A stretch of DNA of 64,000 nt from Ignavibacteria bacterium RIFCSPLOWO2_12_FULL_56_21 (GTDB lineage Bacteria; Bacteroidota; Ignavibacteria; UBA10030). Below the pieces are notes generated by a model. The model saw only the letters and a list, made by a program, of their open reading frames with translations. It was not told the origin of the DNA and did not search any database. Positions 17,980 through 63,424 of the stretch are shown here, one piece after another (the first letter of the stretch is position 1; every line of letters begins with the position of its first letter). The DNA is taken from NCBI GenBank assembly GCA_001802945.1, contig MHAK01000016.1:6803-70802 (forward strand), in the 5' to 3' direction. Made by a program: the position numbers and the translations under genes.

Positions 17980-18098
17980 GTTGAATTTTTCACCATCTGC
18001 TGTTGTATTCTTCAACATTTCACAATCCCCGCACTTGGCCCTCCATTGCCGCAATTCTCAACACATTCCTTCTTTGAGGCGTTGAATATTTCACCACC
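17980..18098 (+). promoter_or_regulatory. three copies of a 16-nt motif (sTTsAAyWTTTCACmA) upstream of the GcvH-like/HybAB-like operon
   Basis: GTTGAATTTTTCACCA (17980), CTTCAACATTTCACAA (18010) and GTTGAATATTTCACCA (18081). The offsets of 30 and 71 nt are about 3 and 7 helical turns. The sites lie 157-273 nt upstream of ATG 18253. Confidence 0.35.
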
Positions 18099-18252
18099 GT
18101 TTTATCCGCGCTAGGGCAGCTCGAAAGCAAGATCGGCAAGTCGTTGTACTCATGTGCATTGGAGCCGTCAAAATCAGGAACGGGCGGGGTTCTTCCGGCA
18201 CGGTTTTCCCAATGTACTCGGTGCAAGGCAACCGATTACCCAGGAGACGACC

Positions 18253-18924
18253 ATGACAGTTCTACTTGTTCTCGTAACTATCCTCTTCTTCCTCGGCCTC
18301 GATTGGGCCGTACGCAGATCGCGCGAACGCAAAGGAATCGCGGCTCCGACGGTTGCAGTTTCACCGCCGCCTGCATTACCTGTGCGCATTCCGGACGGGA
18401 TATTCTTTGCCCGTTCACACACATGGCTCAACCTCTTCCCGTCAGGAAAGGTCCGGTTAGGCGTCGATGACTTCGTCGGCCGATTGCTGGAAAATCCGAC
18501 GATTGTCTATCTGAAGAAAGCCGGCGAGCATGTGAATCGCGGAGAGCCGATGCTACTACTCAAGGAAAACGGCCATGCTCTCACCGTCCGGGCTCCGATC
18601 AGCGGCACCATCCTCTCCGACAATCCCGACCTCACCGAGCATCCCGAGAAAATGCGGGAGATGCTCTTCAGCGACGGTTGGGCGTACACGGTGAAACCCG
18701 ACGCCACAACGCAGCTCCGTACGCTCCTTTTCGGAGAAGAGTCCCATCACTGGATCCAGGGCGAATTCGCCCGATTGCGGGACGTGCTGGCCGGTGTGAA
18801 AGGGGCCGAAGGTCTGGCTCCCGCCCTGTTGCAGGACGGCGGCGTGCCGGTTTCCGGATTGATCCGTACCGCCCCCGACGAGGTATGGCACCGGTTTGAA
18901 CATGAATTCCTGACCGAAGCCTGA
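18253..18924 (+). CDS. membrane-anchored protein with glycine-cleavage-H-like (hybrid barrel) domain, no lipoyl-lysine motif
   Basis: ATG 18253 follows SD AGGAGA. N-terminal TM helix MTVLLVLVTILFFLGLDW is followed by RRSRERK. SHTWL...GKVRLGVDDF...APISGTI...DGWAY follows the GcvH pattern, but ESVK is absent. Confidence 0.6.
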   Translation: MTVLLVLVTILFFLGLDWAVRRSRERKGIAAPTVAVSPPPALPVRIPDGIFFARSHTWLNLFPSGKVRLGVDDFVGRLLENPTIVYLKKAGEHVNRGEPMLLLKENGHALTVRAPISGTILSDNPDLTEHPEKMREMLFSDGWAYTVKPDATTQLRTLLFGEESHHWIQGEFARLRDVLAGVKGAEGLAPALLQDGGVPVSGLIRTAPDEVWHRFEHEFLTEA

Positions 18925-18937
18925 GGGAACTCCGACC

Positions 18938-19726
18938 ATGAAACCGAAAGCGCTATTGATCGATATGACGATGTGCGTTGGCTGCAACGCTTGTCAGGAC
19001 GCCTGCAAGAAAGAGAACGGACTGGCCGAGGGCGAGGAACATAAACTGTCCGCCTCTGCCTATACGGCTCTTGAAGAACATGACGGCGTGTATGTCCGTC
19101 GCATGTGCCAGCACTGTGAAGACCCGACGTGCGCCTCCGTTTGTCCGGTCGGCGCATTCACCAAGACGCCCGAAGGGCCCGTCCTGTACGACGAGAACAA
19201 GTGCATCGGCTGCCGCTATTGCATGCAGGCGTGCCCGTTCCAGGTTCCCCGCTATGAGTGGAACAGCACGTTTCCGCGCGTACACAAATGCATTCTGTGC
19301 CCGCAGCGCGTTTCCAAGGGTCTTCCGACGGCGTGCGCCGAAGCATGTCCGACCGGCGCCACGACATTCGGCGATCGGGACGAGCTGATCAAGATCGCGT
19401 ACGAACGGATGAGTGCAGAGCCCGGGAAATACGTTCCGAAGCTCTACGGCGAGCATGAAGTGGGCGGGACCTCGGTCTTGTATCTCTCGTCCGTCCCGTT
19501 CGAACAGCTCGGTTTCAAGACGAACTTGCAGACTGCCGCTCTGCCACAACTGACGTGGAACGTGCTGTCGAAGATACCGAGCATCGTCACCGTTGGCGGC
19601 GCCATGCTGTACGGCATCTGGTGGATCACCAACCGGCGGGATGAGGTCCGCGCATACGAAGCGGCGCTTCAAGAACGTCGTTCGAACGGAAGCGGCGCCC
19701 ATACCACGAACCCCGAGGAGAACTGA
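18938..19726 (+). CDS. 4x[4Fe-4S] ferredoxin-type subunit (HybA/NrfC/PsrB-like) with C-terminal TM helix and no Tat signal
   Basis: Four cluster motifs: CVGCNACQDAC, CQHCEDPTCASVCP, CIGCRYCMQACP and CILCP...CAEACP. The N-terminus MKPKALLIDMTMC runs straight into cluster 1. C-terminal helix IPSIVTVGGAMLYGIWWI. Confidence 0.85.
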   Translation: MKPKALLIDMTMCVGCNACQDACKKENGLAEGEEHKLSASAYTALEEHDGVYVRRMCQHCEDPTCASVCPVGAFTKTPEGPVLYDENKCIGCRYCMQACPFQVPRYEWNSTFPRVHKCILCPQRVSKGLPTACAEACPTGATTFGDRDELIKIAYERMSAEPGKYVPKLYGEHEVGGTSVLYLSSVPFEQLGFKTNLQTAALPQLTWNVLSKIPSIVTVGGAMLYGIWWITNRRDEVRAYEAALQERRSNGSGAHTTNPEEN

Positions 19727-19729
19727 GCC

Positions 19730-20911
19730 ATGATGATCCCAAAATTCACCATGACGTTCTGGAAAGCGGTTGCAGTCGTCATCCTGGCCGCCGGTGCGGT
19801 CGCCACCATCGTCCGTTTCGGAATGGGACTGGGTGCTTCGACGAACCTGACCGACGAATTTCCATGGGGATTATGGATAGGGTTCGACGTTCTCTGCGGC
19901 GTTGGACTTGCGGCCGGCGGATTTACGCTTGCCGCGATCGTCTACATCTTCAATATCAAGAGGTTCGAGCCTATCGTTCGTCCCACGATCCTGACGGCGT
20001 TCCTCGGCTACATGCTTGTGATCGTGGCGTTGATGTTCGACCTCGGACGTCCGTTGCAGATCTGGCATGCCTTCATCATGTGGAATCCGCGCTCAGTCAT
20101 GTTCGAGGTAGCGTGGTGTGTCATACTCTACACGGCGGTACTGGCGTTGGAATTCGCGCCGGTCGTACTCGAGAAGTTCAACATGACGAAAACAATCGCG
20201 ATGCTGAAACGGATCTCGATTCCCCTCATCATCTTGGGCGTCCTATTGTCGACGCTGCATCAGTCGTCGCTGGGTTCGCTGTATCTCATCGTGCCCGAAA
20301 AGCTGTATCCGCTTTGGTATTCACCGCTGCTTCCGGTGTTCTTTTTCCTGACGGCGGTCGGAGTGGGGTGCGGCATGGTGTTGTTCGAATCGTCCATCAG
20401 CTCCCGCGTATTCAAACGGGGGCTGGAAGTCCACTTATTGTCGGACATTGCGCGAGTGGCAGTTGTTGTGCTTGGCGTGTATGCGGTCTTGAAGTTCATG
20501 GATCTCTCCGACCGAAAGGCGCTGTCGCTGCTGTTCGAACCGCGCGCTGAGACCTATTTCTACTGGCTGGAAGTTGCCGCAGGAATCATCGCGCCGATAC
20601 TTCTCTTCACGCAGCCGCGGATGCGCCGCTCGCCATCGGGACTCCTCGCCGGCGGTATGCTCATTGTGATCGGATTCGTCCTGAATCGGATGAACATCAC
20701 GATCACGGGAATGGAAGGATGGGCGGGCACTACGTATGTCCCGTCATGGATGGAACTTGCGGTGACCGTGGCAATCGTTGCGCTGGGGTTCATAGCGTTC
20801 GCATTCGCGGCAAAGTATTTGCCGCTGTTCGACCATGGCGGCGAAGGAAAGGTGCATGCGAAGATGGAGCTCGATATCACGGCGGATTTGCATGCGGTGT
20901 CGAGGTTGTAG
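19730..20911 (+). CDS. NrfD/HybB/PsrC family integral membrane quinone-interacting subunit
   Basis: 393 aa and highly hydrophobic, with about 10 predicted helices. It starts 4 nt after the FeS gene, and its size matches HybB-type proteins. Confidence 0.85.
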   Translation: MMIPKFTMTFWKAVAVVILAAGAVATIVRFGMGLGASTNLTDEFPWGLWIGFDVLCGVGLAAGGFTLAAIVYIFNIKRFEPIVRPTILTAFLGYMLVIVALMFDLGRPLQIWHAFIMWNPRSVMFEVAWCVILYTAVLALEFAPVVLEKFNMTKTIAMLKRISIPLIILGVLLSTLHQSSLGSLYLIVPEKLYPLWYSPLLPVFFFLTAVGVGCGMVLFESSISSRVFKRGLEVHLLSDIARVAVVVLGVYAVLKFMDLSDRKALSLLFEPRAETYFYWLEVAAGIIAPILLFTQPRMRRSPSGLLAGGMLIVIGFVLNRMNITITGMEGWAGTTYVPSWMELAVTVAIVALGFIAFAFAAKYLPLFDHGGEGKVHAKMELDITADLHAVSRL

Positions 20912-20920
20912 GGCGGCAGA

Positions 20921-20966
20921 GCGCAAAGCGCACGGCGCATGACAGGATGCGCTGTACGCTTTGCGC
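20921..20966. repeat. 20-bp-stem hairpin, family D (GCGCAAAGCGC / GCGCTTTGCGC)
   Basis: GCGCAAAGCGCACGGCGCAT, loop gacagg, then ATGCGCTGTACGCTTTGCGC (18/20 complementary). A third word copy is at 20971-20989. It starts 10 nt after the NrfD-like stop. Confidence 0.65.
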
Positions 20967-20995
20967 CGAGCGCCTCGCGCTTTGCGAAGACCACC

Positions 20996-21730
20996 ATGCT
21001 CAACAAACATTCATATCGTATCGCCCCTCCCGAGTTGCGTTGCGTGTGGATGACCGCCGGCGTCGTGACGTATCAGTTGTGCGACAGGAACTTTGAGTGT
21101 GCCGGTTGTCCGCTCGATGCCGCAATGCGGAACGCGTATGAGAAGATTGCCAGGCCGCCGCAGCGCCCTGCGGAAAATGCGCGGCGGCTGCTCAGACCCG
21201 GGAGGCTCTACACGGCGGAACATTGCTGGGTCGACATTCTCTCGACGAGGTCGGTGCGTATTGGCGTGGAACCATCGTTTGCAAAGCGGCTTGGACAGGC
21301 GGAGGGAATATCGCTTCCCGCGGCAGGACGAGCGATCATGGAACGTGAAACGGCAGCATGGTTCAGGTTTGAGGAAGGAATGGTCCCTGTTCGGCTGCCG
21401 TTCGACGTCCGCGTGACCATGAGCAATCGGGCCGTTCGTGCGGCCCCTGCGCTCGTCGCGGAGGATCCGTATGAGAGGGGTTGGCTGCTCGAAGCGGAAG
21501 TTGAACCGGATGCGTTAGGGGGAAGAAGCGTCATGACGGCCCGCGCCGCGGAGCGGGTGTACGACGAAGATGAAGAATCATTTCGTTCGGCGGTGATCGT
21601 TCCCGGCCGGGATGTACACGTCGGCCCAACGCTCCAGGATGGCGGCGAAGTCAACTCTTCGATCATCGCCGACATGGGAACAGCGAGGTATTGCGCGCTG
21701 GTGGCGAGGATCTATTGTAAGATCAATTAG
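20996..21730 (+). CDS. cytoplasmic protein: N-terminal 4-Cys motif plus GcvH-like domain lacking the lipoyl lysine
   Basis: C-x12-C-x5-C-x2-C (CVWMTAGVVTYQLCDRNFECAGC), then YTAEHCWV...VRIGVEPSFA...DPYERGWLLE, which follows the GcvH pattern. ATG 20996 is chosen because the ORF-track extension (20939) runs through the family D repeat. Confidence 0.6.
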   Translation: MLNKHSYRIAPPELRCVWMTAGVVTYQLCDRNFECAGCPLDAAMRNAYEKIARPPQRPAENARRLLRPGRLYTAEHCWVDILSTRSVRIGVEPSFAKRLGQAEGISLPAAGRAIMERETAAWFRFEEGMVPVRLPFDVRVTMSNRAVRAAPALVAEDPYERGWLLEAEVEPDALGGRSVMTARAAERVYDEDEESFRSAVIVPGRDVHVGPTLQDGGEVNSSIIADMGTARYCALVARIYCKIN

Positions 21731-21896: not shown

Positions 21897-21912
21897 TGGC
21901 ACGCTTTCTGCC
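21897..21912 (+). promoter_or_regulatory. candidate sigma-54 promoter upstream of the sensor kinase/activator pair
   Basis: TGGCACGCTTTCTGCC has GG/GC at exact spacing, with -12 reading CTGC instead of TTGC. It lies 20-27 nt upstream of the GTG starts at 21933/21939. Confidence 0.5.
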
Positions 21913-21932: not shown

Positions 21933-23585
21933 GTGTCCGTGCGTCTTTTCTCATCTTTGAAATTCCGGCTTCTGGCCGGTTCGCTTCTCCTGCTCGTCAT
22001 TCTCTTCGGTACGTATTCGTCGTACGCCGTTTGGTATCATGAACGGCAGCTCATGGCGCAGATGGAGGCGAATGCTCTCAGCATCAGCGAATTCCTGAAA
22101 TCGTCAACCCATTACAGCATGCTCCTCAATCGAAAAGAGGACGTGTATCGGACAATGGAAACGATCGGGAGAGGTGAGCTGATCGCGGGTATCCGTGTTT
22201 ACAACAAACGCGGTCTCATAACGTTTTCGACAGATTCATCCGAGAGGGGGCGAACGCTGGACCTGAACAGCGAGGCTTGCATCCGGTGTCATGCCCCCGG
22301 AACCGCTCCGGTCCTCTCGTTATCCGACGACCGCATTCGCATCGAAACCGGTCCGGCGGGAAGGATCCTCGCGACGATGAGCTCCATCCGGAATGAAGCT
22401 TCGTGTGCAGGTCCAGAGTGCCATGCCCCGCCCAAAGGGCAGCCTGTGGTGGGAGTGCTCGACGTACGTATGACCTTGTCACGCGTCGATGCCAGCATGG
22501 CAGAAGTCCGGACCGGAATGTTCCGCGTCGCAGCGATCCTGGCCGCTTGCGTGCTCTTCCTCGCATGGTGGAGTCTGTCGCGCATTGTGCTGGAACCGAT
22601 CACCGCACTGATGGAGGGGACGCAACAGATCTCCACAGGCAACCTCGAGCACCGCGTGCTCGTCGCCGCGCGGGATGAGCTCGGCGCCCTCGCCAAGAGC
22701 TTCAATGGAATGACGGATTCCATCCGAACGGCGCAAGAGGAAAATCGGCGCTGGTCGGCTACGCTGGAACAGCGGGTCCAGGAAAAGAGCGAAGAGCTGA
22801 CGGCCATTCATCGCCGTATCGTCCACGTGGAGAAAATGACGTCGCTCGGCCGGCTCTCGGCGACGGTCGCGCATGAACTTAACAATCCACTGTCAGGCAT
22901 TCTCACCTATTCGAAATTGCTGAGCCGCCAACTGTCGCGCACCAACTTCGCTTCTGCTTCGCCCGAAGATGTGCTAAGCGAGCTCGATATCATCATACGG
23001 GAAACACATCGATGCGGCGATATCGTCAAGAACCTTCTCCTCTTTTCCAAGAAGGAAAGCGGCGTCTTTGCATACGAGTCGCTCGAGTTGATCGTCGGAC
23101 ATGCGTATCTCATCGTGCGTCATCACCTGGAAATGCGGGACATCAGATTCGTGGAACTGAAACCGCACGGCAACGTGGAGTTGCTCTGTGACGCTCAACA
23201 GATCCAACAGGCCCTCGTAGCGTTGTTCGTCAACGCCGCGGACGCGATGGCGGACGGCGGAACGCTGACGGTGACATACGAAGCTGATGCGTCGGGTCGC
23301 CGGGCGGTTCTGTCCGTGTCCGATACCGGCATTGGCATCGACTCCGAACTCCTGCCCCGGATCTTCGAACCCTTCTATACGACCAAGGAAGGCGGTCAAG
23401 GTGTGGGGCTCGGCCTTGCCGTGGTGTACGGTATCATCGAACGCCATGGCGGGACCATCAGCGTCGATTCGTCCTCCGGCAAGGGGGCGACATTCACCAT
23501 GATCTTCCCGGCGGCAGAACAGACGAACGCCGACGCGCCGCAGTCGGCACTCCATTCGACAACGAAGTCTCTTCCAACAGCATGA
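21933..23585 (+). CDS. sensor histidine kinase: TM, extracytoplasmic loop with CXXCH heme-c motif, TM, HAMP, HisKA, HATPase
   Basis: TM1 is about residues 12-30 and TM2 about 197-216. The loop contains CIRCH (res 116-120) and CAGPECH (res 158-164). H-box SATVAHELNNPLSG; N/G boxes NAADAM, DTGIGI, GVGLGLAV. Confidence 0.9.
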   Translation: MSVRLFSSLKFRLLAGSLLLLVILFGTYSSYAVWYHERQLMAQMEANALSISEFLKSSTHYSMLLNRKEDVYRTMETIGRGELIAGIRVYNKRGLITFSTDSSERGRTLDLNSEACIRCHAPGTAPVLSLSDDRIRIETGPAGRILATMSSIRNEASCAGPECHAPPKGQPVVGVLDVRMTLSRVDASMAEVRTGMFRVAAILAACVLFLAWWSLSRIVLEPITALMEGTQQISTGNLEHRVLVAARDELGALAKSFNGMTDSIRTAQEENRRWSATLEQRVQEKSEELTAIHRRIVHVEKMTSLGRLSATVAHELNNPLSGILTYSKLLSRQLSRTNFASASPEDVLSELDIIIRETHRCGDIVKNLLLFSKKESGVFAYESLELIVGHAYLIVRHHLEMRDIRFVELKPHGNVELLCDAQQIQQALVALFVNAADAMADGGTLTVTYEADASGRRAVLSVSDTGIGIDSELLPRIFEPFYTTKEGGQGVGLGLAVVYGIIERHGGTISVDSSSGKGATFTMIFPAAEQTNADAPQSALHSTTKSLPTA

Positions 23586-24934
23586 CCATGGAAAACAAAC
23601 CTGCCATCCTCATCGTGGACGACGAAAAGGTCGTCCGGGATTCTCTTACAAAATGGTTCCGACAGGACGGATATGATGTGGACGGGGCGGAAAACGGAGC
23701 GGTAGCGCTGAAGAAAATGCAGGCCAGGGCGTGGGACCTCATTCTGCTTGACATTAAGATGCCGGGAATGGACGGCATGGAACTGCAACAGCGGATCAAA
23801 GAGCTGGACGTTCCCGCAACGATCATCTTTATCACAGCGCATGCGACGATCGATTCCGCCGTCCAGGCGCTGAAACAAGGGGCGTTCGATTATGTGACAA
23901 AGCCCGTCGACCCGGACTATCTGACGCATGTAGTGGCCAATGCTCTTCGCCAACGGTCGCTTTCAAAAGAGAACGAACGATTGCGCGAAGGGATAACTTC
24001 AGCAGCGCGGGCGGAGGAGATCGTCGGCGAGTCGCCACAGATCCGGAAGGTCTTTGACCTCATCGACACAGTAGCGAAGACCGACACGACGGTGATGATC
24101 CGCGGCGAGAGCGGCACAGGAAAGGAGCTTGTCGCCCGGGCCATCCATGCGAACAGCTCACGCCGCTTCTTTCCCATTGTTCCCGTCAATTGCGGAGCGA
24201 TGACGGAAGGTCTTCTGGAGAGCGAGCTGTTCGGCCACGAACGGGGGGCATTCACAGGGGCGCATTATCGGCGGAAAGGAAAGATCGAGCTCGCTGACGG
24301 CGGCACGATCTTCCTCGACGAGATCGGCAATATCAGCATGAAGACGCAGATGGACCTCTTGCGCGTGTTGGAGACGCGTCAATTCACGCGGGTCGGAGGG
24401 AACGACGTGATTTCCGTCGATTTCCGCGTCATTTGCGCGACAAATAAGGACCTTGAACGGGCGGTCAAAGAAGGGACATTCCGCGAGGACCTCTATTATA
24501 GGTTGAATGTGTTTACGATCGTCCTGCCTCCGTTGCGGGAGCGGCGAAGCGACATTGTGCCGCTGGCAAAGTATTTCCTGAAGAAATATGCCGCGCAGAT
24601 GAACAAGCCGGTAACCGGCTTTGCGCCCGATGCTATGGATGTACTCCTGCAATACGAGTGGCCGGGGAACGTGCGGGAGCTCGAGAACGCCATCGAGCGG
24701 GCAATGGTTATCGGCTCTCCGCCGATGCTGACTCCGAACGACCTGCCGTTCAAGCTATCGGATACCGTCGGCGCTGTGCGGTCTGGCACGCTGGCGGACG
24801 TCGAGCGAATCTACATCCAGGACGTACTGCATAAGAACGATTGGAACATCAGTCGTTCGGCGGAAGAGCTGGACATCGACCGGGTCACGCTGTATCACAA
24901 GATCGAAAAATACGGGTTCAAAAAGCCGGCGTGA
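23582..24934 (+). CDS. sigma-54-dependent Fis-family response regulator (NtrC-type)
   Basis: Receiver (ILIVDDE ... LLDIKMPGMDG), AAA+ domain (GESGTGKE, GAFTGA, FLDEIG) and C-terminal HTH (NISRSAEELDIDRVTLYHKIEKYG). ATGA overlap with the kinase gene. Confidence 0.95.
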   Translation: MTMENKPAILIVDDEKVVRDSLTKWFRQDGYDVDGAENGAVALKKMQARAWDLILLDIKMPGMDGMELQQRIKELDVPATIIFITAHATIDSAVQALKQGAFDYVTKPVDPDYLTHVVANALRQRSLSKENERLREGITSAARAEEIVGESPQIRKVFDLIDTVAKTDTTVMIRGESGTGKELVARAIHANSSRRFFPIVPVNCGAMTEGLLESELFGHERGAFTGAHYRRKGKIELADGGTIFLDEIGNISMKTQMDLLRVLETRQFTRVGGNDVISVDFRVICATNKDLERAVKEGTFREDLYYRLNVFTIVLPPLRERRSDIVPLAKYFLKKYAAQMNKPVTGFAPDAMDVLLQYEWPGNVRELENAIERAMVIGSPPMLTPNDLPFKLSDTVGAVRSGTLADVERIYIQDVLHKNDWNISRSAEELDIDRVTLYHKIEKYGFKKPA

Positions 24935-25476
24935 GCCGCAACATCCGCCTGTTGAACGCAACTGGGCTCGAGAAGAGCTCCCTGGAGTCGATAACCGTGC
25001 GTGTTGCCCGGGCGCTGCACTGTGATGTTCGGCTCGAGTCTTACCGGCCGGACCTGACTCGAGTGCTCGATCCTACGCGCGGACAGTGCCATTCGGGGGG
25101 ACTGCTGAAAGAAATGCAGGACCGATTCAACGGACGTGGGGAGCCGAATGAACGATTCGCCGCGCTGGTCGACGTCGACCTGTTTATCCCCGTCCTGACG
25201 TTCGTCTTCGGCGAAGCCCAGCTCGACGGAAAGTATGCCGTCATCTCGACCTACCGCTTGAAGAATGAATTCTACGGAATTCCTGCCGACCCCGGCCGAT
25301 TGCTTGAACGATTCGAAAAAGAGATTGTGCACGAGGCCGGACATGTGTTCGGCCTTTTGCATTGCAGGAATTTTGAATGTGTAATGCGATCGTCCACGTA
25401 CGTCGAGGAGATCGACTTGAAGCGGAATTCCCTTTGCAGCGATTGTGAAAGCATAATGGAGCGGAAAATGGAATGA
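24931..25476 (+). CDS. archaemetzincin-family zinc metallopeptidase (M54)
   Basis: HEAGHVFGLLHCRNFECVM...CSDC matches the HExxHxxGx3Cx4CxM...CxxC archaemetzincin signature. The GTG start overlaps the regulator's TGA (GTGA). Confidence 0.8.
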   Translation: MSRNIRLLNATGLEKSSLESITVRVARALHCDVRLESYRPDLTRVLDPTRGQCHSGGLLKEMQDRFNGRGEPNERFAALVDVDLFIPVLTFVFGEAQLDGKYAVISTYRLKNEFYGIPADPGRLLERFEKEIVHEAGHVFGLLHCRNFECVMRSSTYVEEIDLKRNSLCSDCESIMERKME

Positions 25477-25837: not shown

Positions 25838-26725
25838 ATGATTTCTTCCATCGTGCTTGTCAAACAGGTCCCCGACACAGCAAACATCACGGGTAACGTG
25901 ATGCAGGAAGACGGAACCGTCAACCGGGCGAAGCTTCCCGCCGTCCTGAATCATGAGGACCGCGTCGCGCTTGAGTTGGCGCTGCAAGTCAAGGACCAGT
26001 ACGGCGGCGCGGTCGCGGCGGTTTCGATGGGACCACCGCGGGCCTCGGACATCCTTCGAGAATGCCTGTATATGGGGGCTGATTCCGCATATTTGGTAAC
26101 TGATCGCAAGTTCGCCGGGGCAGACACGCTCGCAACGTCATATGTCCTCAGTGAGGCCATCAGGAAAATTGGTCCGTTCGACCTCGTGTTCGCCGGGCGG
26201 CAGGCGATCGACGGAGACACCGCCCAAGTGGGTCCGCAGACCGCAGAGAAGCTCGGCATTCCCCAGATTACCTACGTCGACGCCATCCTCGGCGTGAAGA
26301 ACAGAGTTCTCACCGCTCGCCACCGGATCGACGGCGGAAGCGAGGTGGTAACGTGTAAACTGCCTGCGCTCCTGACCGTGCTCAAAGATGCGGCGGAACC
26401 GCGTCCGTTCAAAGCGCGCCGCGTCATGGCGTTCAAAGGGGCGAAATCGTTGCTCGAGTTGGAGAAGATGGCGGAAGGGAACTCGCTCCTCTATATCGAT
26501 AAGCTCGTGCATGAATTCCAGTCCCGCTCGATGTTCATCCCGACATTGACAATGGACGATCTTCAGCTCGACCCGGCACGCTGCGGCGTGCAGGGTTCGC
26601 CGACGAAGGTCTACAAAGTGGAATCTGTCGTTCTCACATCCGACGGGCGTCAGTCCGTCCCACCCACGAAAGAGGGTCTTGGATCGCTCATCGACCAACT
26701 CCTCGCTGACCATATCCTTGGATAG
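25838..26725 (+). CDS. etfB: electron transfer flavoprotein beta subunit
   Basis: 295 aa. IVLVKQVPDT, MGPPRASD and GRQAIDGDTAQVGP are typical EtfB motifs. Confidence 0.9.
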   Translation: MISSIVLVKQVPDTANITGNVMQEDGTVNRAKLPAVLNHEDRVALELALQVKDQYGGAVAAVSMGPPRASDILRECLYMGADSAYLVTDRKFAGADTLATSYVLSEAIRKIGPFDLVFAGRQAIDGDTAQVGPQTAEKLGIPQITYVDAILGVKNRVLTARHRIDGGSEVVTCKLPALLTVLKDAAEPRPFKARRVMAFKGAKSLLELEKMAEGNSLLYIDKLVHEFQSRSMFIPTLTMDDLQLDPARCGVQGSPTKVYKVESVVLTSDGRQSVPPTKEGLGSLIDQLLADHILG

Positions 26726-26732
26726 ATTGAAC

Positions 26733-27746
26733 ATGAGCTCACGAGAGGTCTGGGTGTTTGTCGAATTGCGCAACGGGCGTCCTGCCGATGTGAGTTTCGA
26801 GCTGCTGTCGAAAGGGCACAAACTTGCCCAGGCGATCGGAGGTCGGTTGCTGTCGGTCGTCATCGGTCGCAACACGTCGTCTATCGGTAAAGAGACGTTT
26901 CGGTATGGCGCGGACGAAGCTCTGCTTGTCGACGACCCCGCGCTCGAGTTCTACAGAACCATGCCGTTTGCCCGGGTCATGACCGACCTTGTCCGCGCCA
27001 GACAGCCGCGCATAGTACTCTTCGGAGCGACGATTATCGGGCGCGACCTAGCGCCGCGCGTCGCGTCTGCAACCCGCAGCGGCCTTACCGCCGATTGTAC
27101 AGACCTCCAGATCTCGGACGTCTCCTATCTCCGGAGGAACTATCCGCAGCTCCTGTTGCAGATTCGCCCGGCGTTCGGCGGGAATATCATTGCGACGATC
27201 ATCACGCCCGACAATCCGGTACAAATGGCGACTGTCCGCGAAGGGGTCATGGAGAAGCATCGCCTGGAAGATCGCGGGAACGGTGTTCTTACAAAGATCC
27301 CGTATACGGCGCACGACATAGATGGTCTCGTGGAGATCGTTGAGCAGCATCGGGAAGAAAGCAAAGTGAACCTCAAAGCGGCATCCATCATCGTCGCGGG
27401 CGGTTATGGGTTGAAGACGAAAGAGAACTTCGGACTCATCCGCGATTTTGCGCACGTTTTGGGGGCGGAAGTTGCGGGGAGCAGGGCCGCGGTCGACGCG
27501 GGGTTTATCCCCCCGGAGCGGCAGGTCGGCCAGACCGGCACGACGGTGCGCCCGAAGCTGTACATCGCCGTCGGAATATCGGGGGCGATTCAGCACAGAG
27601 CAGGCATGCAGGAGTCAAACAAGATCGTCGCCATCAACACGGACCCGGATGCGCCGATCTTCGGCATCAGTCACTACGGTATCGTGGGTGATGCGATGGA
27701 GGTGATTCCGAGATTCATCGAAGTGTATAAGAACAAGTTGAAGTAG
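26733..27746 (+). CDS. etfA: electron transfer flavoprotein alpha subunit
   Basis: 337 aa. EVWVFVE, IIVAGGYG, VGQTGTTVRPKLYIAVGISGAIQHRAGM and IVAINTDPDAPIF. The internal ATG 26733 is used because the ORF-track extension overlaps etfB. Confidence 0.9.
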   Translation: MSSREVWVFVELRNGRPADVSFELLSKGHKLAQAIGGRLLSVVIGRNTSSIGKETFRYGADEALLVDDPALEFYRTMPFARVMTDLVRARQPRIVLFGATIIGRDLAPRVASATRSGLTADCTDLQISDVSYLRRNYPQLLLQIRPAFGGNIIATIITPDNPVQMATVREGVMEKHRLEDRGNGVLTKIPYTAHDIDGLVEIVEQHREESKVNLKAASIIVAGGYGLKTKENFGLIRDFAHVLGAEVAGSRAAVDAGFIPPERQVGQTGTTVRPKLYIAVGISGAIQHRAGMQESNKIVAINTDPDAPIFGISHYGIVGDAMEVIPRFIEVYKNKLK

Positions 27747-27786
27747 CACTGTACGCGATAATATGTAGGCCTCGGTCAGAAGAAAA

Positions 27787-27904
27787 ACGCCAAGGGGCCA
27801 AGAGAGCCAAGAACGCCAAGTGATAATTGAACCAATGAAAAATTGTCATTCAGCTTGGCGTCCTTGGCGGGCAGCGACGTACGTGGCCTTGGCACCTTGG
27901 CGTT
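27787..27904. repeat. family B tandem-word hairpin (GCCAAG x4 / CTTGGC x4)
   Basis: ACGCCAAGGGGCCAAGAGAGCCAAGAACGCCAAG, an AT-rich 33-nt loop, then CTTGGCGTCCTTGGCGG ... GGCCTTGGCACCTTGGCGTT. It lies between etfA and the acyl-CoA dehydrogenase gene. Confidence 0.7.
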
Positions 27905-27969
27905 AATCTTTCAAAAATGAATGAAGTACCACAAGCCATCTCGAATGACTCATTCAGTACACCACACGC

Positions 27970-29697
27970 ATGCCCAACTACTTTCTTGACAACGCCGACA
28001 TCCAGTTCCACTTCAGTCGCCTAGACCTGCGCGAGATCGCCGCGATGCAGGAGGAGAACTACACTCAGGCGAAGGAGTTCCCCGAGGCTCCAGTGGATTA
28101 CGACGACGCGATGACGAACTATCGGAAGGTCCTGGAAGTCGTGGGCGATCTCGCAGGGAATCGCATTGCGCCCCGTGCAGCCGGCGTTGACCACGACGGG
28201 GCAACGCTTGCGGACGGCAAGGTCTCGTATGCTCCCGGGACGCAGCGGAACGTACGAGAGCTTGGTCAAGCGGAGCTCATGGGATTGATCTTCCCGCACA
28301 CATACGACGGGTTGAACTTTCCGTTCACGATCTACATGATGGCTGTAGAGGTGATGGCGCGTGCAGATGCTTCTTTAATGAATATTTTCGGTCTGCAGGA
28401 TATCGGTGATACGATCAAGAAATTCGGCACAGAAAAGCAACGGAGACAGTATCTCCCGGAATTCAGCGCCGGCGTGTCGACGGGAGCCATGGCACTCACC
28501 GAACCTGACGCCGGTTCGGACCTCCAGGCCGTCAAACTCCAGGCGTACCAGAACGGGGACGGCACATGGTTTCTGCGGGGCGTCAAGCGATTCATCACCA
28601 ACGGCAACGGCGAGCTGCTGCTTGTGCTGGCACGGTCGGAGCCGGGAACGAAGGACGGAAGAGGTCTCAGTCTGTTCGTCTGCCGCAGCGGGAAAACTGT
28701 GAAGATCCGGCGGATCGAAAACAAGCTCGGCATCCACGGCTCTCCGACCTGTGAGCTCCAATTCAACGACACGCCGGCAGAGCTTCTTGGTGCTCGGAAG
28801 TTCGGGCTTATCAAGTACGTGTTCGACCTCATGTATCGGGCCCGCATGGGCGTTTCCGCGCAGGCTTTAGGTATCTCACAGGCGGCCTACGATGAGGCGT
28901 ACCGGTATGCAAAGGACCGGGTGCAATTCGGCAAGCCGATCGTGTCGATACCGGCCGTTGCAAACATGCTCATCGAAATGCGGGTCACGCTCGAGGCCAA
29001 CAGGTCGCTGTTCTACAGCGCGGCACAATGTGTCGACCGGAAAGAGAAGTACGAAGAGCTTGCCGAACGGTTGAAGTCAGAAGGCAAGCCATTCGCAGAA
29101 GAGGCAGCCAAAGCAAAGCAAGCGGCCCGGGTCGCGAATCTCTTGACGCCGATGACGAAATACGTGCTCACGGAATCGTCCAATCGAATCTCGTACGATG
29201 CGCTGCAAATCCACGGCGGGACGGGCTACATGAAGGAATTCCGGGTGGAGCGGCTCGCACGCGATGCCCGTATCACGAACATCTACGAAGGAACGTCGCA
29301 ACTGCAGATCGTCGCAGCCTCCGGACAGGTGACCAACGATATTCTCCGGGAGTACTTTGACGATAAAGAAGCCAAGAATTATCGAGGAGGATTGGTCATG
29401 CTGGCGGAACGTCTCAAAGAAATGCGGCACATCTTCAAGACGTGTCTCGCATATGTGATGGGAAAAAGAGATCAGTCCTTTGTTGATGTCGCGGCGAAAG
29501 ATCTCGTGGACCTTTACAGCTATCTCTACGTCGGATATCTTGTGCTCGACGAGGCGGAGGAAGATGCTCGGAAAGTGTTCATCGCGAACAGATACATTCT
29601 CTCCGCTTTGTCGCAATCGCGCAAGTGTGCGGAGTCGATCACGAACGGCGTCTTCTCGGATCTTTTGCACGCGGAGAAGATCCTGAACGTCAACTGA
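27970..29697 (+). CDS. acyl-CoA dehydrogenase (long form with C-terminal extension)
   Basis: 575 aa. ALTEPDAGSD, KRFITNGNG, GGTGYMKEFRVERLARDARITNIYEGTSQ. Confidence 0.9.
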   Translation: MPNYFLDNADIQFHFSRLDLREIAAMQEENYTQAKEFPEAPVDYDDAMTNYRKVLEVVGDLAGNRIAPRAAGVDHDGATLADGKVSYAPGTQRNVRELGQAELMGLIFPHTYDGLNFPFTIYMMAVEVMARADASLMNIFGLQDIGDTIKKFGTEKQRRQYLPEFSAGVSTGAMALTEPDAGSDLQAVKLQAYQNGDGTWFLRGVKRFITNGNGELLLVLARSEPGTKDGRGLSLFVCRSGKTVKIRRIENKLGIHGSPTCELQFNDTPAELLGARKFGLIKYVFDLMYRARMGVSAQALGISQAAYDEAYRYAKDRVQFGKPIVSIPAVANMLIEMRVTLEANRSLFYSAAQCVDRKEKYEELAERLKSEGKPFAEEAAKAKQAARVANLLTPMTKYVLTESSNRISYDALQIHGGTGYMKEFRVERLARDARITNIYEGTSQLQIVAASGQVTNDILREYFDDKEAKNYRGGLVMLAERLKEMRHIFKTCLAYVMGKRDQSFVDVAAKDLVDLYSYLYVGYLVLDEAEEDARKVFIANRYILSALSQSRKCAESITNGVFSDLLHAEKILNVN

Positions 29698-51837: not shown

Positions 51838-53370
51838 ATGACGAATGACGTCGGGGCCACGCTCGAAGAGCTGAAGAGAAAGCGGAAGTTCCCAAACGCG
51901 TTCTATAATCCGATCACGCTATTCGGACTGGGTCTCAGCCTTCTCAGTCTTGCGCTCATTTCCTTCCTGCTCGTCCTCGATTATTTCTCCGCGACATCCA
52001 AGCCGTATGTCGGCGTCATAGCGTTCATCCTGTTGCCTCTTGTCTTCATCGCCGGAGGCCTCACGTCATTCTGGGGGGCTTGGAGGTATCACCGGCACCT
52101 GGCGAAGAAAGGGATCGTTGTTTATCATCTGCCCCGGGTCGACCTCAACGACCCGCGTCATCTTCGGGCGACGCTGTTTAGCTTGGCGGCAGTACTCGCC
52201 GTCGGAGGTACGGCGGCATTCACGAGCTACCAAGCGTATGAATACACAGAATCGGACGAGTTCTGCGGCACCACGTGCCACAGCGTCATGAATCCCGAAT
52301 TCACCGCGTATCAATTCTCGCCCCATGCACGCGTAGGATGCGTGGAATGTCACATCGGCTCCGGGGCCGACTACTTTGTGAAGTCGAAGCTTTCCGGCAG
52401 CTATCAGGTGTATGCGGTCGCGTTCAACAAGTATCCCAGACCCATTCCCACCCCCATTCAAAACCTGCGTCCTGCGCAGGAAACATGCGAACAATGCCAT
52501 TGGCCGAAAAATTTCTTCAGCGAAAAACTGCACAAGAATTCGTATTTCCTGTCGGATGAAAAGAACACAAGATGGGACCTGGACCTGCTGATGAAGATCG
52601 GCGGCGGGAACATTGAGGTGGGGCCAACGTCCGGCATCCACTGGCACATGAACATCGCCAACGTGGTGACCTACGGGACGGTCGATTCGTCGCGGCAGAC
52701 GATCGCCTGGGTGAAGTCCCGCGATTCCGCAGGAGTGGAACGCATCTACCGCAATACGGATCAGCCGCTGTCGGCCGAAGATTCGAGCAAGGTCATGGTC
52801 CGGAAAATGGACTGCCTCGACTGTCACAACAGGCCTTCGCACGCCTACCATCCCCCGGCCATGTCGGTGAACACCGCCATGACGTACGGATGGATCGACC
52901 CAAGCCTTCCGTATGTCAAGTCGGTGGCCGTCGACGCGCTCGACCGGGGTTATACGACGAACACAGTGGCGATGGACAGCATTCGTGTATTGTTGTCGGA
53001 CTACTATGAAGAAAAGTATCCCGACATTGCGCGCCGCGACCGTGGAAAGATCGAACGGACCATCCAGGAAGTACAAAAGATCTACTCAAGGAACTACTTC
53101 CCGGAGATGAAAGTCGAGTGGCGGAAGTTTCCCGATAATATCGGCCACCTGTTCTATCCGGGATGCTTCCGTTGTCATGACGGAAAGCATGTCGACGCGG
53201 AAGGGAAGTCGCTGTCCCGGGAATGCAATGTGTGTCACACCATCCTGGCCCAGCAATTCCAGGACGACAAGCTGAGACTTTCTCTCGGCGGCGTAGAGTA
53301 TCGCCACCCCGTCGATATCGGCGATGCGTGGAAAGAAATGAACTGCAACGATTGCCATAACAGCCGGTAA
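51838..53370 (+). CDS. membrane-anchored NapC/NirT-like multiheme cytochrome c (6 CXXCH + 1 CX3CH)
   Basis: Three N-terminal TM helices, then ESDEFCGTTCHSVM...HARVGCVECH (NapC/NirT-like signature). Further CXXCH motifs: CEQCH, CLDCH, CFRCH, CNVCH, CNDCH. Confidence 0.8.
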   Translation: MTNDVGATLEELKRKRKFPNAFYNPITLFGLGLSLLSLALISFLLVLDYFSATSKPYVGVIAFILLPLVFIAGGLTSFWGAWRYHRHLAKKGIVVYHLPRVDLNDPRHLRATLFSLAAVLAVGGTAAFTSYQAYEYTESDEFCGTTCHSVMNPEFTAYQFSPHARVGCVECHIGSGADYFVKSKLSGSYQVYAVAFNKYPRPIPTPIQNLRPAQETCEQCHWPKNFFSEKLHKNSYFLSDEKNTRWDLDLLMKIGGGNIEVGPTSGIHWHMNIANVVTYGTVDSSRQTIAWVKSRDSAGVERIYRNTDQPLSAEDSSKVMVRKMDCLDCHNRPSHAYHPPAMSVNTAMTYGWIDPSLPYVKSVAVDALDRGYTTNTVAMDSIRVLLSDYYEEKYPDIARRDRGKIERTIQEVQKIYSRNYFPEMKVEWRKFPDNIGHLFYPGCFRCHDGKHVDAEGKSLSRECNVCHTILAQQFQDDKLRLSLGGVEYRHPVDIGDAWKEMNCNDCHNSR

Positions 53371-53381
53371 GGAGTTCGCGC

Positions 53382-53837
53382 ATGACCGAATCAACCGCGG
53401 AAAAAGTTCAGGAAGAGCGTCGCGATCTCCTGAAGTGGCTCCTGGGAGGGAGCCTGGTCGCCTGGATCGCTTCGGTCGCGTACCCCATTCTGGCATATCT
53501 ACAACCCCCCAAGCAGAATGAAGTTGCTGTACAGAGCATAAAAGCAGGAAAACTTTCGGAGATCGAACTGGATTCCGGTAGGATCGTAAAGTTCGGCACT
53601 AAGCCGGTTATTCTCATCCGCACCAACACGAACGAGCTCAAGGCTTTTACCGCCACGTGTACGCATCTCGACTGCACGGTGCAATACAGCAAGGAGAAGG
53701 GCATCATCTGGTGTGCGTGCCACAACGGGCAGTACGACCTCACGGGTCGGAATATCGGCGGACCGCCCCCAAAACCTCTGGAGGAATTCAGGGTCCTCAT
53801 TCAAGAAGACGAGGTCCTAATCTCGAAAAACACATGA
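53382..53837 (+). CDS. Rieske [2Fe-2S] protein
   Basis: Tat-like [11 protein letters not shown] with a TM helix. Cluster boxes CTHLDCTV and [17 protein letters not shown]. Confidence 0.9.
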
Positions 53838-54910
53838 AGACGATCTGGGAGAAGTTGTATAAGTGGATCGACGAGCGGGTAGACCTTGCGGACCTCGTCG
53901 AGTTTATGGGAAAAAAATACGTTCCCATCCATCGACATTCCATTTGGTACTACTTCGGGGGTGTGACGCTCTTCCTCTTCCTGATCCAAGTGGTGAGCGG
54001 GATCCTTCTCCTGATGTACTACAAAGGGAGTGAAGATCTGGCATTCGAGAGCATCCAGTTCATCATGTCGAAAGTCCAGTTTGGCTGGCTCATCCGGTCC
54101 ATCCATTCATGGGCCGCGAATCTGTTTATTCTTGCGGCCGTCATTCATATGTTTAGCGTGTACTTTACAAAGGCGTACCGAAAACCACGCGAGATCACTT
54201 GGCTCACCGGCATGTTCATGCTCTTCCTCGGGATGGGGTTTGGCTTCAGCGGATACCTCCTCCCATGGAACGAACTCGCATTCTTTGCCACCAAAGTCGG
54301 AACAGATATCGCAGGAGCTGTGCCCATCGTCGGTAAGCCGATCATGGTGTTGCTCAGGGGGGGAGAAGATGTCACGGGCGCCACGTTATCACGCATGTTC
54401 GGATTTCATGTCGCCATTTTCCCCGGGATCTTCGCGGTTCTTCTGGGGATTCATCTCGTTCTAGTGCAGCGCCAGGGTATGAGCGAGCCCATCGGACATT
54501 CTGAGTCGGGTGGGGACCTCAAAACAATGCCGTTCTTCCCGAATTTCCTTTTGCGGGACCTGTTGCTTTGGTTGATTGTGCTGAACGTGCTGGCGATTCT
54601 CGCCGTCCTCTTTCCGTGGGAATTGGGGGTGAAGGCCGATCCGTTCGCTTCCGCACCCGCGGGCATCAAACCTGAGTGGTACTTTTTGTTCATGTTCCAA
54701 TCGTTGAAATATATCCCTGCGGAAGTTCTGTACATCGAAGGGGAGATCTTGGGGATCCTACTTTTTGGCCTGGCCTTTGCGTTGTGGACAATGGTTCCTT
54801 TTTGGGATCGGAAGAGCAACTTCGGCCAAGAGAACAAGGTTGTCACCTATGTGGGCCTCTTTGTTGTGGCGTTTGTCATTGCACTGACGATCTTGGGGTG
54901 GACAGCATGA
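53834..54910 (+). CDS. cytochrome b of a Rieske/cyt b complex (b6-like part fused to subunit IV-like part)
   Basis: [19 protein letters not shown], and the PEWY Qo motif ([11 protein letters not shown]). ATGA overlaps at both ends. Confidence 0.9.
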
Positions 54911-56382
54911 GTATGAATACACGTCGGATTCGCGCCGCTTCCATTTTCGCTCTCATTCTGTTCCATCCACTGGTTTCGTTTTCACAGGACCAGTGCCGCA
55001 CTTGCCACGAATCCATCGAGGATCCACGCGCCCTCGCGTTTGCGGCTGATATTCACGCCTCAAATGGGATATCGTGTGCCGACTGCCACGGAGGCGACCG
55101 CACCAAAGAAGATATGGAAGAAGGGATGAGCGCCGGAGCGGGATTTCGAGGTGTCCCGGTCGGAGATGCGATCTCCGATGTGTGTGCCTCGTGCCACAGC
55201 GATGCTTCGAAGATGGTACACGTCTACAAGTCTACTCTGCCTCTTGATCAGGTCGAAGCCTTGAAGGCGTCTGTACACGGCCAGCAGTCAGTCTCAGGCA
55301 GGAGCCGTATCGCCCAATGCACCTCCTGCCACGGAGCGCACGGTATTCTCCCCAGATCGAACAGAAAATCGCCCGTCCACCCGGCGAACGTTCCGACAAC
55401 GTGCGCACGATGCCATTCCAATGCCGGCTACATGACGGCGTATGACCCATCGATGCCCGTCGATCAATATCAGAAGTATCGCAGCAGCGTCCATGGAAAA
55501 TTGAATCAACGGGGTGACTCGAAGGTGGCGGAGTGCGCAAGCTGCCACGGAAGCCACGACATCCTGGCGGCGAAGGATGTCCGGTCCAAGGTCTATCCGA
55601 TCAACCTTCCCGCAACGTGCGGTTCGTGCCATGCCGACGCGGTGTACATGCGCGGATACGGAATCGGCACGGATCAGTTGAAAGAGTACTCGAAAAGCGT
55701 CCACGGCGTTGCCCTTTTGCAAAAGCACGACATCGGTGCCCCAGCCTGCAACGACTGTCACGGTAATCACGGAGCGGTCCCTCCTGGAGTGGAATCGATA
55801 TCGAAGGTGTGCGGATCATGCCATGCCCTCAATGCCGACCTGTTCTCGAAAAGCCCACACAAGAAGGCTTTCGATACACGTGGTCTGCCAGAATGCGAGA
55901 CCTGCCACGGGAACCATGAAGTTGTAAGGACAACGGACCAGCTTCTCGGGGTCGGTAAGGAAGCTGTCTGCGCATGGTGCCACAAAGACGATACAAAGTC
56001 GCGTGGCCACATCGTTGCCGCCACCATGCGTCAACTGGCCGATAGTCTGGCCGACGCAGAGGATTCTGCGCAGCGGCTTCTCAACGATGCAGAGCAAAAA
56101 GGAATGGAGGTCGGCGAGGCCCGGTTCGCGGCCCGGAGTATCAGGCAGGCCCGCCTCGAGTCAAGGACAAAAGTCCACTCCTTCCAGGAATCACAATTCA
56201 GAGATGTTGTGGAAAAGGGACTGTCAGCCGCCAAAGACGTTTCGGCACAAGCAGAGGAGGCCATCGGAGAGTACCACTTCCGTCGTTGGGGATTGTTGAT
56301 AGCCTCATTCGCCATCACCCTTCTGGCGGTCTCGCTATATCTGCTGATTCGCAGGATTGAGAGTCGACAACGAGCAAAGTGA
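54907..56382 (+). CDS. 11-heme cytochrome c with C-terminal coiled-coil and TM anchor
   Basis: Signal peptide, 11 CXXCH motifs counted, and C-terminal helix [21 protein letters not shown]. Confidence 0.85.
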
Positions 56383-56599
56383 GGATATTTTTCCTTTCCT
56401 TGCGACTCTCCTTACATATGTCAGTTTCCGGTCCTTGGGAACCGCGGTATTCCACTGTCATATGTGGACACCTGCCGTCGTTGAACTGCCGCAACAACCC
56501 GCCCGCCGTATCTTTCGATCTCCCGCGTTTTCCCACCGGATGGCATGATAGTTGAAGGTCGAACGAGAATCTTATATCTCATACGTGAGGTGAATACCC

Positions 56600-56854
56600 A
56601 TGGAAGAGCTCCATCGCGGTACCTCCGAGAGGCTCATCTTCTTCTTTCAGCTCTCTAGCGTCCTCCTGATTTGGCTGTTTGTCATTGCCATCACCCTCTG
56701 GATCTCCAGGCTCATCGTTCTCTCCCTTGAGCTCAATGATGCCCCCGGGGCCTCTGTGGCCATTAGCCTCGTAGCCATTCCCGTATTTATGACACTGGCT
56801 GGAATTCTTACGTATGTCTTCGTCGGATTACAGAGGGGGAAGAAAAAAGTCTGA
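56600..56854 (+). CDS. small hydrophobic membrane protein (84 aa)
   Basis: SD GAGGTGA. Two to three predicted TM helices. No family recognised. Confidence 0.45.
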   Translation: MEELHRGTSERLIFFFQLSSVLLIWLFVIAITLWISRLIVLSLELNDAPGASVAISLVAIPVFMTLAGILTYVFVGLQRGKKKV

Positions 56855-56877
56855 ATCACCTTAGGAGGAGAATCGAC

Positions 56878-58598: not shown

Positions 58599-58608
58599 CG
58601 GATGCGCC

Positions 58609-61988: not shown

Positions 61989-62003
61989 AGGGATGCTTGG
62001 ACA

Positions 62004-63308: not shown

Positions 63309-63424
63309 TCTCCAGGCGATTGGATTTGGCGTTTCGACGACCATGGAAGAATCTCACAGCTCTACACCGTGCTATGTCCAATAACGCACGCGTTCCACAC
63401 ACAACACGAGGAAAGGCAACCAGC

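Follow-up and report, generated by a model that had tools for sequence, protein, structure and literature searches.

The closest described counterparts of the genes considered here are membrane modules in which an iron–sulfur (FeS) protein is paired with a subunit of the NrfD family. In the HmcABCDEF system of Desulfovibrio, HmcB (FeS) and HmcC (NrfD-type) are accompanied by the 16-haem HmcA, the small transmembrane (TM) protein HmcD, HmcE and HmcF, and in Escherichia coli hydrogenase 2 the pair HybA/HybB stands beside HybO and HybC. FdnH, the beta subunit of formate dehydrogenase-N, is a four-cluster FeS protein without a signal peptide and with a C-terminal TM helix; it partners a cytochrome b, not an NrfD protein, and is exported by hitch-hiking with a partner that bears a twin-arginine (Tat) signal, FdnG, which is encoded alongside. 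Proteins of the HybA and HmcB types usually operate for a catalytic partner (PMC8076601). The sulfite dehydrogenase SoeABC is a cytoplasm-facing NrfD-type complex with peripheral subunits that lack Tat signals; its SoeC, the one NrfD protein for which the opposite orientation is assumed, is expected to have an inverted membrane topology (PMC8076601). Here we describe a stretch of 64,000 nt (the window; positions 6,803–70,802 of MHAK01000016.1) from Ignavibacteria bacterium RIFCSPLOWO2_12_FULL_56_21, in which four plus-strand genes, g1 to g4 (window positions 18253–21730), encode an FeS/NrfD pair flanked by two proteins that resemble GcvH, the H protein of the glycine cleavage system. The four genes are the structural part of a conserved seven-gene unit that has no catalytic partner gene.

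Related loci were gathered from the genomic contexts of g4 homologues and from a scan of one genome per species, which together gave 80 loci (L numbers), and their gene order was mapped by tblastn with seven window proteins. All 80 are in metagenome-assembled genomes, from Ignavibacteriota/Bacteroidota, Acidobacteriota, Gemmatimonadota, Eisenbacteria, Planctomycetota and Thermodesulfobacteriota, and further from Syntrophorhabdus, Zixibacteria, Calditrichales, Myxococcales and Hyphomicrobiales; the gene cluster thus occurs in ten or more bacterial phyla. The recurring order is [TM-GcvH-like ×1–2]–FeS–NrfD–[TM-GcvH-like]–4Cys-GcvH-like, followed by a HAMP kinase, a sigma-54 regulator and an M54 protease. 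Components were counted in the 51 loci that are flanked on each side by 5.5 kb or more of sequence: FeS and NrfD genes are present in 45 and 46 of these, kinase and regulator in 47 each and the M54 protease in 42, and all five occur together in 37. Kinase, regulator and protease remain linked even if inverted (L045, L051, L081). Two loci, L065 (9227–14070) and L055 (8758–14076), have no FeS/NrfD genes within the locus and retain a TM-GcvH-like gene together with g4, the regulator and the dihaem kinase; the protease is present in L055 and was not found in L065. Because the order recurs in 80 loci of many phyla, it is far from chance. Two cluster types can be told apart by the N-terminus of the FeS subunit, which is either signal-less, as in the window, or Tat-bearing.

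The sequence-only reading, an earlier interpretation of this DNA from its letters and open reading frames (ORFs), had proposed a four-gene module in the order TM-anchored GcvH-like protein, 4×[4Fe-4S] protein, NrfD/HybB-like protein and 4-Cys GcvH-like protein. All four ORFs and their order on the plus strand were confirmed, and the quartet recurs in the relatives. The boundary drawn around it was too narrow, however: the haem-motif sensor kinase and sigma-54 activator that it had placed downstream are indeed there, but as members of the unit rather than mere neighbours, and the archaemetzincin-family protease belongs to it too. The conserved unit thus comprises seven genes, four structural ones plus kinase, sigma-54 activator and archaemetzincin (Table 1). 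The absence of a catalytic subunit, also claimed earlier, holds well beyond this genome, as no catalytic or multihaem partner gene is found in the window cluster and none is conserved in the surroundings of the 80 loci. Likewise, the combination had not been recognised as a described complex, and a literature search for such a composition gave nothing relevant; no description of a combined NrfD/FeS, GcvH-like and two-component unit was found, although the NrfD survey of Duarte et al. 2021 may list the group. Directly after the cluster, the window contains genes for EtfB, EtfA and an acyl-CoA dehydrogenase-like protein (25838–29697), an adjacency that is not conserved in relatives.

Table 1. 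Genes and putative regulatory elements of the unit, in window coordinates
Feature	Position	Strand	Description
g1	18253..18924	+	N-terminal TM helix, GcvH-like domain without lipoyl Lys, C-terminal extension with LQDGG
g2	18938..19726	+	HybA/HmcB-like 4×[4Fe-4S] protein without signal peptide, anchored by a C-terminal TM helix
g3	19730..20911	+	NrfD-family, HybB/HmcC-like; 10 TM helices predicted, with both termini predicted on the cytoplasmic side
g4	20996..21730	+	soluble; 4-Cys module, GcvH-like domain without lipoyl Lys, C-terminal TLQDGG extension
Sensor histidine kinase	21939..23585	+	TM1, periplasmic PDC-like domain with CxxCH + Cx4CH, TM2, HAMP, HisKA, HATPase
NtrC-family sigma-54 activator	23582..24934	+	REC, AAA+ with GAFTGA, Fis-type HTH (HTH_8)
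Archaemetzincin-family (M54) Zn protease	24931..25476	+	NCBIfam archmetzin, HEAGHVFGLLHC motif
Palindromic site 1, GTTGAATTTTTCACC	17980..17994	+	putative enhancer site for sigma-54 activator
Palindromic site 2, GTTGTATTCTTCAAC	18002..18016	+	22 bp from site 1
Palindromic site 3, GTTGAATATTTCACC	18081..18095	+	
Sigma-54-like -24/-12 promoter, CGGCACGGTTTTCCC	18194..18208	+	45 nt before g1 ATG; inferred variant element
Sigma-54 promoter, TGGCACGCTTTCTGC	21897..21911	+	directly upstream of kinase gene
RNA hairpin	20921..20966	+	between g3 and g4; strong, lineage-specific

The FeS protein g2 (262 aa) contains 16 Cys residues in four [4Fe-4S] motifs (13/16/19/23, 57/60/65/69, 89/92/95/99 and 118/121/133/137) and matches Fer4_11 with an E-value of 1.3e-23. 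Its best NCBIfam match is HmcB (E 9e-76; 255 bits against a cut-off of 420), which begins at model position 37, and HybA is also matched (E 3e-58; 198 bits against a cut-off of 263). The protein is 38% identical to E. coli HybA over 272 alignment columns and shares its 16-Cys pattern and tail-in anchor, while the closest solved structure is that of FdnH (1kqf_B, E 5e-32), to which it is alike in being a signal-less four-cluster protein with a C-terminal TM helix. Its NrfD-family partner g3 (393 aa, with ten hydrophobic cores) matches Pfam NrfD (E 1e-24; 87.7 bits against a gathering score of 25.8) and, in NCBIfam, HmcC (E 1e-97; 327 bits) and HybB (E 9e-92), both under the equivalog cut-offs; no sequence relative of it was found in the PDB at an E-value of 0.01. 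The resemblance to known complexes ends with this pair. Unlike HmcABCDEF, the unit has no 16-haem HmcA and no HmcE or HmcF, its FeS subunit lacks the signal peptide of HmcB, and the HmcB and HmcC scores stay under the equivalog cut-offs; unlike hydrogenase 2, it has no HybO/HybC genes and no Tat signal, again with scores under the cut-offs; and unlike FdnH, g2 is paired with an NrfD protein and has no Tat-bearing partner encoded alongside.

The ORF of g2 opens 12 codons before the first cluster Cys and has no upstream in-frame extension. About 36 orthologues (50–78% identity) have a stop codon 10–25 codons upstream of that Cys, and the best 120 metagenomic clusters of g2 relatives are all 252–273 aa long. 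A cryptic Tat or Sec signal on g2 is therefore ruled out, since there is no in-frame sequence upstream in which it could lie. In about 25 clusters of like architecture from other phyla, by contrast, the orthologous FeS subunit carries a canonical twin-arginine signal. A Tat-motif scan of all window ORFs yielded just two proteins, an unrelated MopB (58609) and a Rieske protein, both at a distance of about 35 kb or more. Both genes lie in a separate respiratory set (window 51838–63964) that includes a NapC/NirT-type cytochrome, the Rieske protein with its Tat-like signal, cytochrome b and several multihaem cytochromes, and within which a canonical MopB–FeS–NrfD arrangement is found: a MopB with a Tat signal (58609–61053), a signal-less FeS protein (61227–61988) and NrfD (62004–63308), followed by a c554-like cytochrome.

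The orientation of the pair was assessed from the distribution of Lys and Arg (K+R) on the two sides of the membrane. In g3, the loops on the side of the N-terminus carry 15 such residues and those on the other side 6, compared with 16 and 4 in E. coli HybB; the means are 16.8 and 5.6 among NrfD proteins of the signal-less type (n = 36, minimum difference 6) and 20.4 and 6.5 among those of the Tat type (n = 25), so that, for g3 as well as for 61 relatives, the bias agrees with that of HybB in sign and size. Because this bias equals that of HybB, the FeS-docking and quinone loops of g3 (PWG loop) are predicted to be periplasmic; the charge bias thus shows an NrfD in a predicted canonical orientation, with the quinone site and the FeS-docking face on the periplasmic side. 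The C-terminal helix of the FeS subunit has K+R counts of 1 before and 3 after it in both g2 and HybA, with means of 1.5/4.4 in the signal-less type and 1.8/3.1 in the Tat type, which predicts a C-terminal TM anchor with a cytoplasmic tail, like that of HybA. The signal-less and Tat-type consensus sequences share 55% identity in the segment from the fourth cluster to the anchor, compared with 47% in the ferredoxin core. The sequence-only reading had correctly noted that the FeS protein lacks a twin-arginine signal and that no neighbouring gene supplies one (the nearest is that of the unrelated MopB, and there is none among the cluster ORFs), and from this it had predicted that the pair faces the cytoplasm. 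That prediction is not supported: the HybB-like bias of NrfD, the charges of the FeS tail, the Tat signals in sister clusters and the shared NrfD-proximal segment all speak against it. The most economical reading is that the FeS subunit would be exported and would dock on the periplasmic side in the canonical way. In SoeABC, too, an NrfD-family protein is bound by peripheral subunits without Tat signals, but the NrfD here is not inverted by its charge bias and there is no MopB subunit.

The two flanking proteins had been described in the sequence-only reading as GcvH-fold proteins without the lipoylation lysine, and the present analysis bears this out. The 223-aa g1 matches Pfam GCV_H over the entire domain (E 4e-13) and NCBIfam GcvH below the cut-off (E 5.5e-15), and for this protein the hidden Markov model (HMM) matches alone point to the fold. 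For g4 (Pfam GCV_H, E 1e-10), a profile of 20 homologues matches solved H-proteins in the PDB (E 6e-23), the AlphaFold2 model has a predicted local distance difference test (pLDDT) score above 90 over residues ~65–200, and a Foldseek comparison of the model with solved H-proteins gave template-modelling scores of 0.78–0.89, with GcvH-L (5a35) among the matches (E 5e-4). The start of g4 is most likely the ATG at 20996, giving 244 aa, and not position 20939, because its homologues are 244–250 aa long. The cut-off of the NCBIfam GcvH model is 117 bits, and the two proteins reach 55 and 47. The column of the lipoyl lysine holds Gly in g1 and Glu in g4, and in 198 GcvH-like domains from related loci it is variable in both subfamilies (G17, D13, K13, S10 and others in the TM-anchored class; G34, E15, D8, A8 and others in the 4-Cys class). 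The fold is common to GcvH, to the lipoate-binding protein LbpA of sHdr systems and to GcvH-L; the proteins described here differ from these in lacking the lipoyl lysine, in carrying a TM anchor or a 4-Cys module and a C-terminal extension of ~70 aa, in having receiver-fused relatives and in the lack of a lipoate ligase in the cluster. Neither gcvT/gcvP nor lipoate ligase genes were found as neighbours at the window cluster or in the relatives' contexts that were examined. The extension contains a (T/L)LQDGG loop that is common to g1, g4 and a third subtype described below and is absent from ordinary GcvH.

In g1, a hydrophobic N-terminal helix is followed by RRSRERK, with no K+R before the helix and 5 after it. 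Among 96 TM-anchored GcvH-like members, the helix begins a median of 2 residues from the N-terminus, and K+R averages 0.5 before and 3.5 after it, with more after in 92 of the 96. TM-anchored GcvH-like proteins are thus predicted to have the N-terminus outside and the GcvH-like domain in the cytoplasm, and g4 has no TM helix. With this topology, direct redox contact between GcvH-like domains and the FeS subunit cannot be the conserved function, because in Tat-type clusters these domains would lie across the membrane from the FeS protein.

In the Tat-type clusters, the gene after NrfD opens with a helix that resembles NCBIfam HmcD (E 2e-5 to 6e-4, under the cut-off, in three phyla), a further likeness to HmcABCDEF. 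In these sister clusters, and not in the window, the helix is fused to a GcvH-like domain, which sets the gene apart from HmcD and defines a third GcvH-like subtype (L026 9114–9929, L050 9033–9956, L036 9201–9896). The hairpin of this subtype retains a conserved lysine, in the form (D/E)SK, that is displaced by one residue from the canonical lipoyl position; unlike g1 and g4, the subtype might be modified. A search for the HmcD-like helix in g1 gave no match even at an E-value of 10; only the post-NrfD subtype of the other phyla matches.

The N-terminal motif of g4, C-x12-C-x5-C-x2-C (C16, C29, C35 and C38), was likewise found as the sequence-only reading had given it. No Pfam model covers this module. 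Used as the sole query, it retrieved 727 clusters at 50% identity, often with tandem copies; E-values for so short a motif need care, as they include spurious matches to eukaryotic-type repeat proteins (P0050, P0127). The module precedes GcvH-like domains and is also fused to HisKA-HATPase (P0149) and to REC and TPR domains (P0174). In tandem arrays, the form C[VI]WMxAG...C-x5-C-x2-C alternates with a variant PCRYxLxG...C-x5-C-x2-C (P0048, P0049, P0055, P0100, P0149, P0174). Fusions are found on the GcvH side as well: relatives encode REC-GcvH and TM-REC-GcvH proteins beside a paralogous dihaem kinase (L026, L029, L038, L008, L041, L033, L040). At these loci (2991–7000 in L026), the paralogous kinase has a Cys-rich insertion in its ATPase domain; next come a response regulator of the REC-GcvH-like kind and a TM-REC-GcvH-like protein, and the whole set lies upstream of FeS/NrfD. 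The receiver-GcvH, kinase-4Cys and HmcD-GcvH fusions in relatives suggest that the GcvH-like proteins, which would not be lipoyl carriers, have signalling or adaptor roles.

The kinase, which probably starts at the GTG at 21939, has between its TM helices a CxxCH and a Cx4CH motif that are nearly invariant in 61 sequences. Cx4CH is accepted as a c-haem motif in cytochromes c3, and the periplasmic PDC-type domain of the kinase is predicted to carry two c-type haems. An AlphaFold2 model of the sensor region shows a single PDC/PAS-like domain with a pLDDT of 72 and motif loops below 50; the underlying alignment was shallow, as a word-indexed homologue search gave 6 matches. The model matches the folds of the WalK, CitA and DctB sensor domains and of the haem-c sensor GSU0935, with 3b42 among the matches. 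The Geobacter haem-c PAS-like sensors (GSU0582/GSU0935) thus share a periplasmic PDC/PAS-like domain with CxxCH, from which the kinase differs in having two haem motifs, CxxCH and Cx4CH. The regulator contains a Sigma54_activat domain (E 9e-71). The archaemetzincin scores 149.6 bits against a cut-off of 145 and contains the HExxHxxGxxHC and Cys4 motifs; its GTG start overlaps the TGA of the regulator gene (GTGA, 24931–24934), which suggests that the two may be translationally coupled. In respiratory two-component systems such as TtrSR and TorSR, kinase and regulator adjoin a presumed target operon, as they do here; the sigma-54 output, the archaemetzincin gene and the GcvH-like partners set the present unit apart.

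The region upstream of g1 contains three copies of the palindrome GTTGAA-N3-TTCAAC, which are its only matches with at most one mismatch in the 64 kb. In the sequence preceding the first cluster gene, the palindrome has a frequency of 1.62 per 450 nt in 32 signal-less loci (0.036 elsewhere) and 1.26 in 23 Tat-type loci (0.033 elsewhere), an enrichment of ~40-fold across the 55 related loci. The pair of sites 22 bp apart is also present in L012, L017, L019–L022 and others, and relatives often have a third site. Downstream of the palindromes, an element TGGCAC-N5-TT(T/C)C is aligned in L001, L006, L007, L002, L012, L017–L020, L023, L027 and L033; the corresponding variant element at 18194 was detected only through this alignment of relatives. 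The sequence TTGGCCCTCCATTGCC at 18034 was considered as a canonical sigma-54 promoter of g1 and rejected, as its GG–GC spacing is one base short. Upstream of the kinase gene, TGGCACGCTTTCTGC is one mismatch from the sigma-54 consensus and is conserved at a like position in L001, L011, L013, L017, L018, L020, L021 and L024. The hairpin between g3 and g4 has a GC-rich stem of 19–20 bp (-48 kcal/mol, z -2.8). A role as terminator or attenuator was rejected, since it has no T-run and is not conserved, and the corresponding gaps in relatives are mostly 20–45 nt; it may be a lineage-specific RNA-stability or repeat element.

Taken together, these observations are consistent with a sensor-controlled quinone module of the HmcBC/HybAB type with GcvH-like regulatory subunits, an interpretation whose chances of being right we regard as evenly balanced. 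In this scheme, the membrane kinase would sense the periplasm through its predicted dihaem PDC-type domain and phosphorylate the NtrC-type sigma-54 activator, which would bind the three GTTGAA-N3-TTCAAC sites so that the sigma-54-type promoter before g1 fires, while the second sigma-54 promoter would drive the kinase, regulator and protease genes. The genes g1 to g4 would form the structural operon of a seven-gene redox-response unit and encode a quinone-interacting module of the HmcBC/HybAB type. Its FeS subunit would most probably work on the periplasmic face, where it would pass electrons between the quinone pool and haem proteins of the periplasm; these could be soluble cytochromes or the haem domain of the kinase itself. 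The FeS protein of this lineage would have lost its own Tat signal and would presumably be exported by hitch-hiking. The TM-tethered g1, and g4 with its 4-Cys metal or redox-sensing module, may act as cytoplasmic adaptors that couple the membrane module to the two-component system. Several points weigh against this interpretation. No export route was found for the signal-less FeS protein, and no Tat-bearing partner is present in the cluster or conserved nearby, so its placement in the periplasm depends on indirect arguments from the rules of membrane topology. In the g1 promoter, the -12 element has (T/C)C in place of the canonical GC, binding of the palindromes by the adjacent regulator is inferred from their co-conservation, and the model assigns no role to the M54 protease, a cytoplasmic Zn enzyme. 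Every locus, moreover, comes from an uncultured genome.

The lack of a signal peptide on g2, on its approximately 36 orthologues and on more than 120 metagenomic clusters, together with the lack of a Tat-bearing neighbour, would be explained most directly if the FeS protein stayed in the cytoplasm, tail-anchored and facing that side with NrfD, and the GcvH-like proteins were its electron or substrate partners. Both g1 and g4 are predicted to be cytoplasmic, the 4-Cys site of g4 could hold a cluster, and SoeABC is a precedent for a cytoplasm-facing NrfD complex (PMC8076601). We nevertheless regard this arrangement as quite unlikely, since NrfD has a HybB-like bias in all 36 relatives, so a cytoplasmic FeS protein could not reach the face with the quinone site; the positive charges of the FeS anchor follow the helix, the FeS subunit is exported through Tat in sister clusters that share these GcvH-like genes, and the NrfD-proximal FeS segment is conserved between both types. 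An export route would be available if g2 and g3 coupled quinone to a periplasmic enzyme encoded elsewhere (for instance a hydrogenase, a formate dehydrogenase or some other Tat substrate) that carried the FeS protein across the membrane, with the GcvH-like proteins as assembly or stability factors and the two-component system an ordinary substrate-responsive one. The build of g2 (no signal, C-terminal anchor, tail-in) matches that of FdnH, the window itself has a signal-less FeS protein beside a Tat-bearing MopB, and a catalytic partner is the norm for HybA/HmcB-type proteins (PMC8076601). Such an orphan anchor is rather unlikely, however, because none of the 80 loci has a conserved catalytic gene nearby, and the Tat-type versions, which have their own signal, still have no partner; it also leaves unaccounted for the receiver-GcvH and kinase-4Cys fusions and the clusters that have GcvH-like genes, kinase and regulator without FeS/NrfD. 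Public annotations read 'glycine cleavage system H protein', which would make g1 and g4 ordinary H proteins placed beside a respiratory operon by chance or misannotation. The chance of this is negligible: it is refuted by the GcvH scores far under the cut-off, the missing lysine, the added TM helices, 4-Cys module and shared LQDGG extension, and the synteny across phyla.

A bolder form of the sensor-controlled quinone module, doubtful as it stands, is that the FeS/NrfD pair is itself a sensory device. The dihaem domain of the kinase would then be its cytochrome partner, wired to the menaquinone pool via the four clusters and the quinone site of NrfD; the lipoate-free GcvH-like domains, whether free, TM-tethered, receiver-fused or 4-Cys-fused, would be a new class of signalling output or adaptor domain that relays the state of the module to kinase and regulator or gates NrfD from the cytoplasmic side; and in signal-less lineages the FeS protein would arrive in the periplasm by an undescribed route. 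The GcvH-like signalling domains, and a signal-less FeS protein opposite an NrfD predicted to be canonically oriented, would be the more unusual elements of the unit.

NrfD/FeS modules are a common quinone-coupling device of anaerobic respiration and are catalogued by their catalytic partner. The unit described here occurs without such a partner across at least ten phyla of mostly uncultured anaerobes, and it poses a problem of cell biology, in that a four-cluster protein has no signal peptide while its membrane partner and its anchor both point to the periplasm. If the proposed interpretation is true, a regulatory or sensory use would be added to the NrfCD module, a 4-Cys sensory module found in hundreds of protein clusters would be defined, and the GcvH fold would gain a non-lipoyl signalling role, backed by the receiver fusions.

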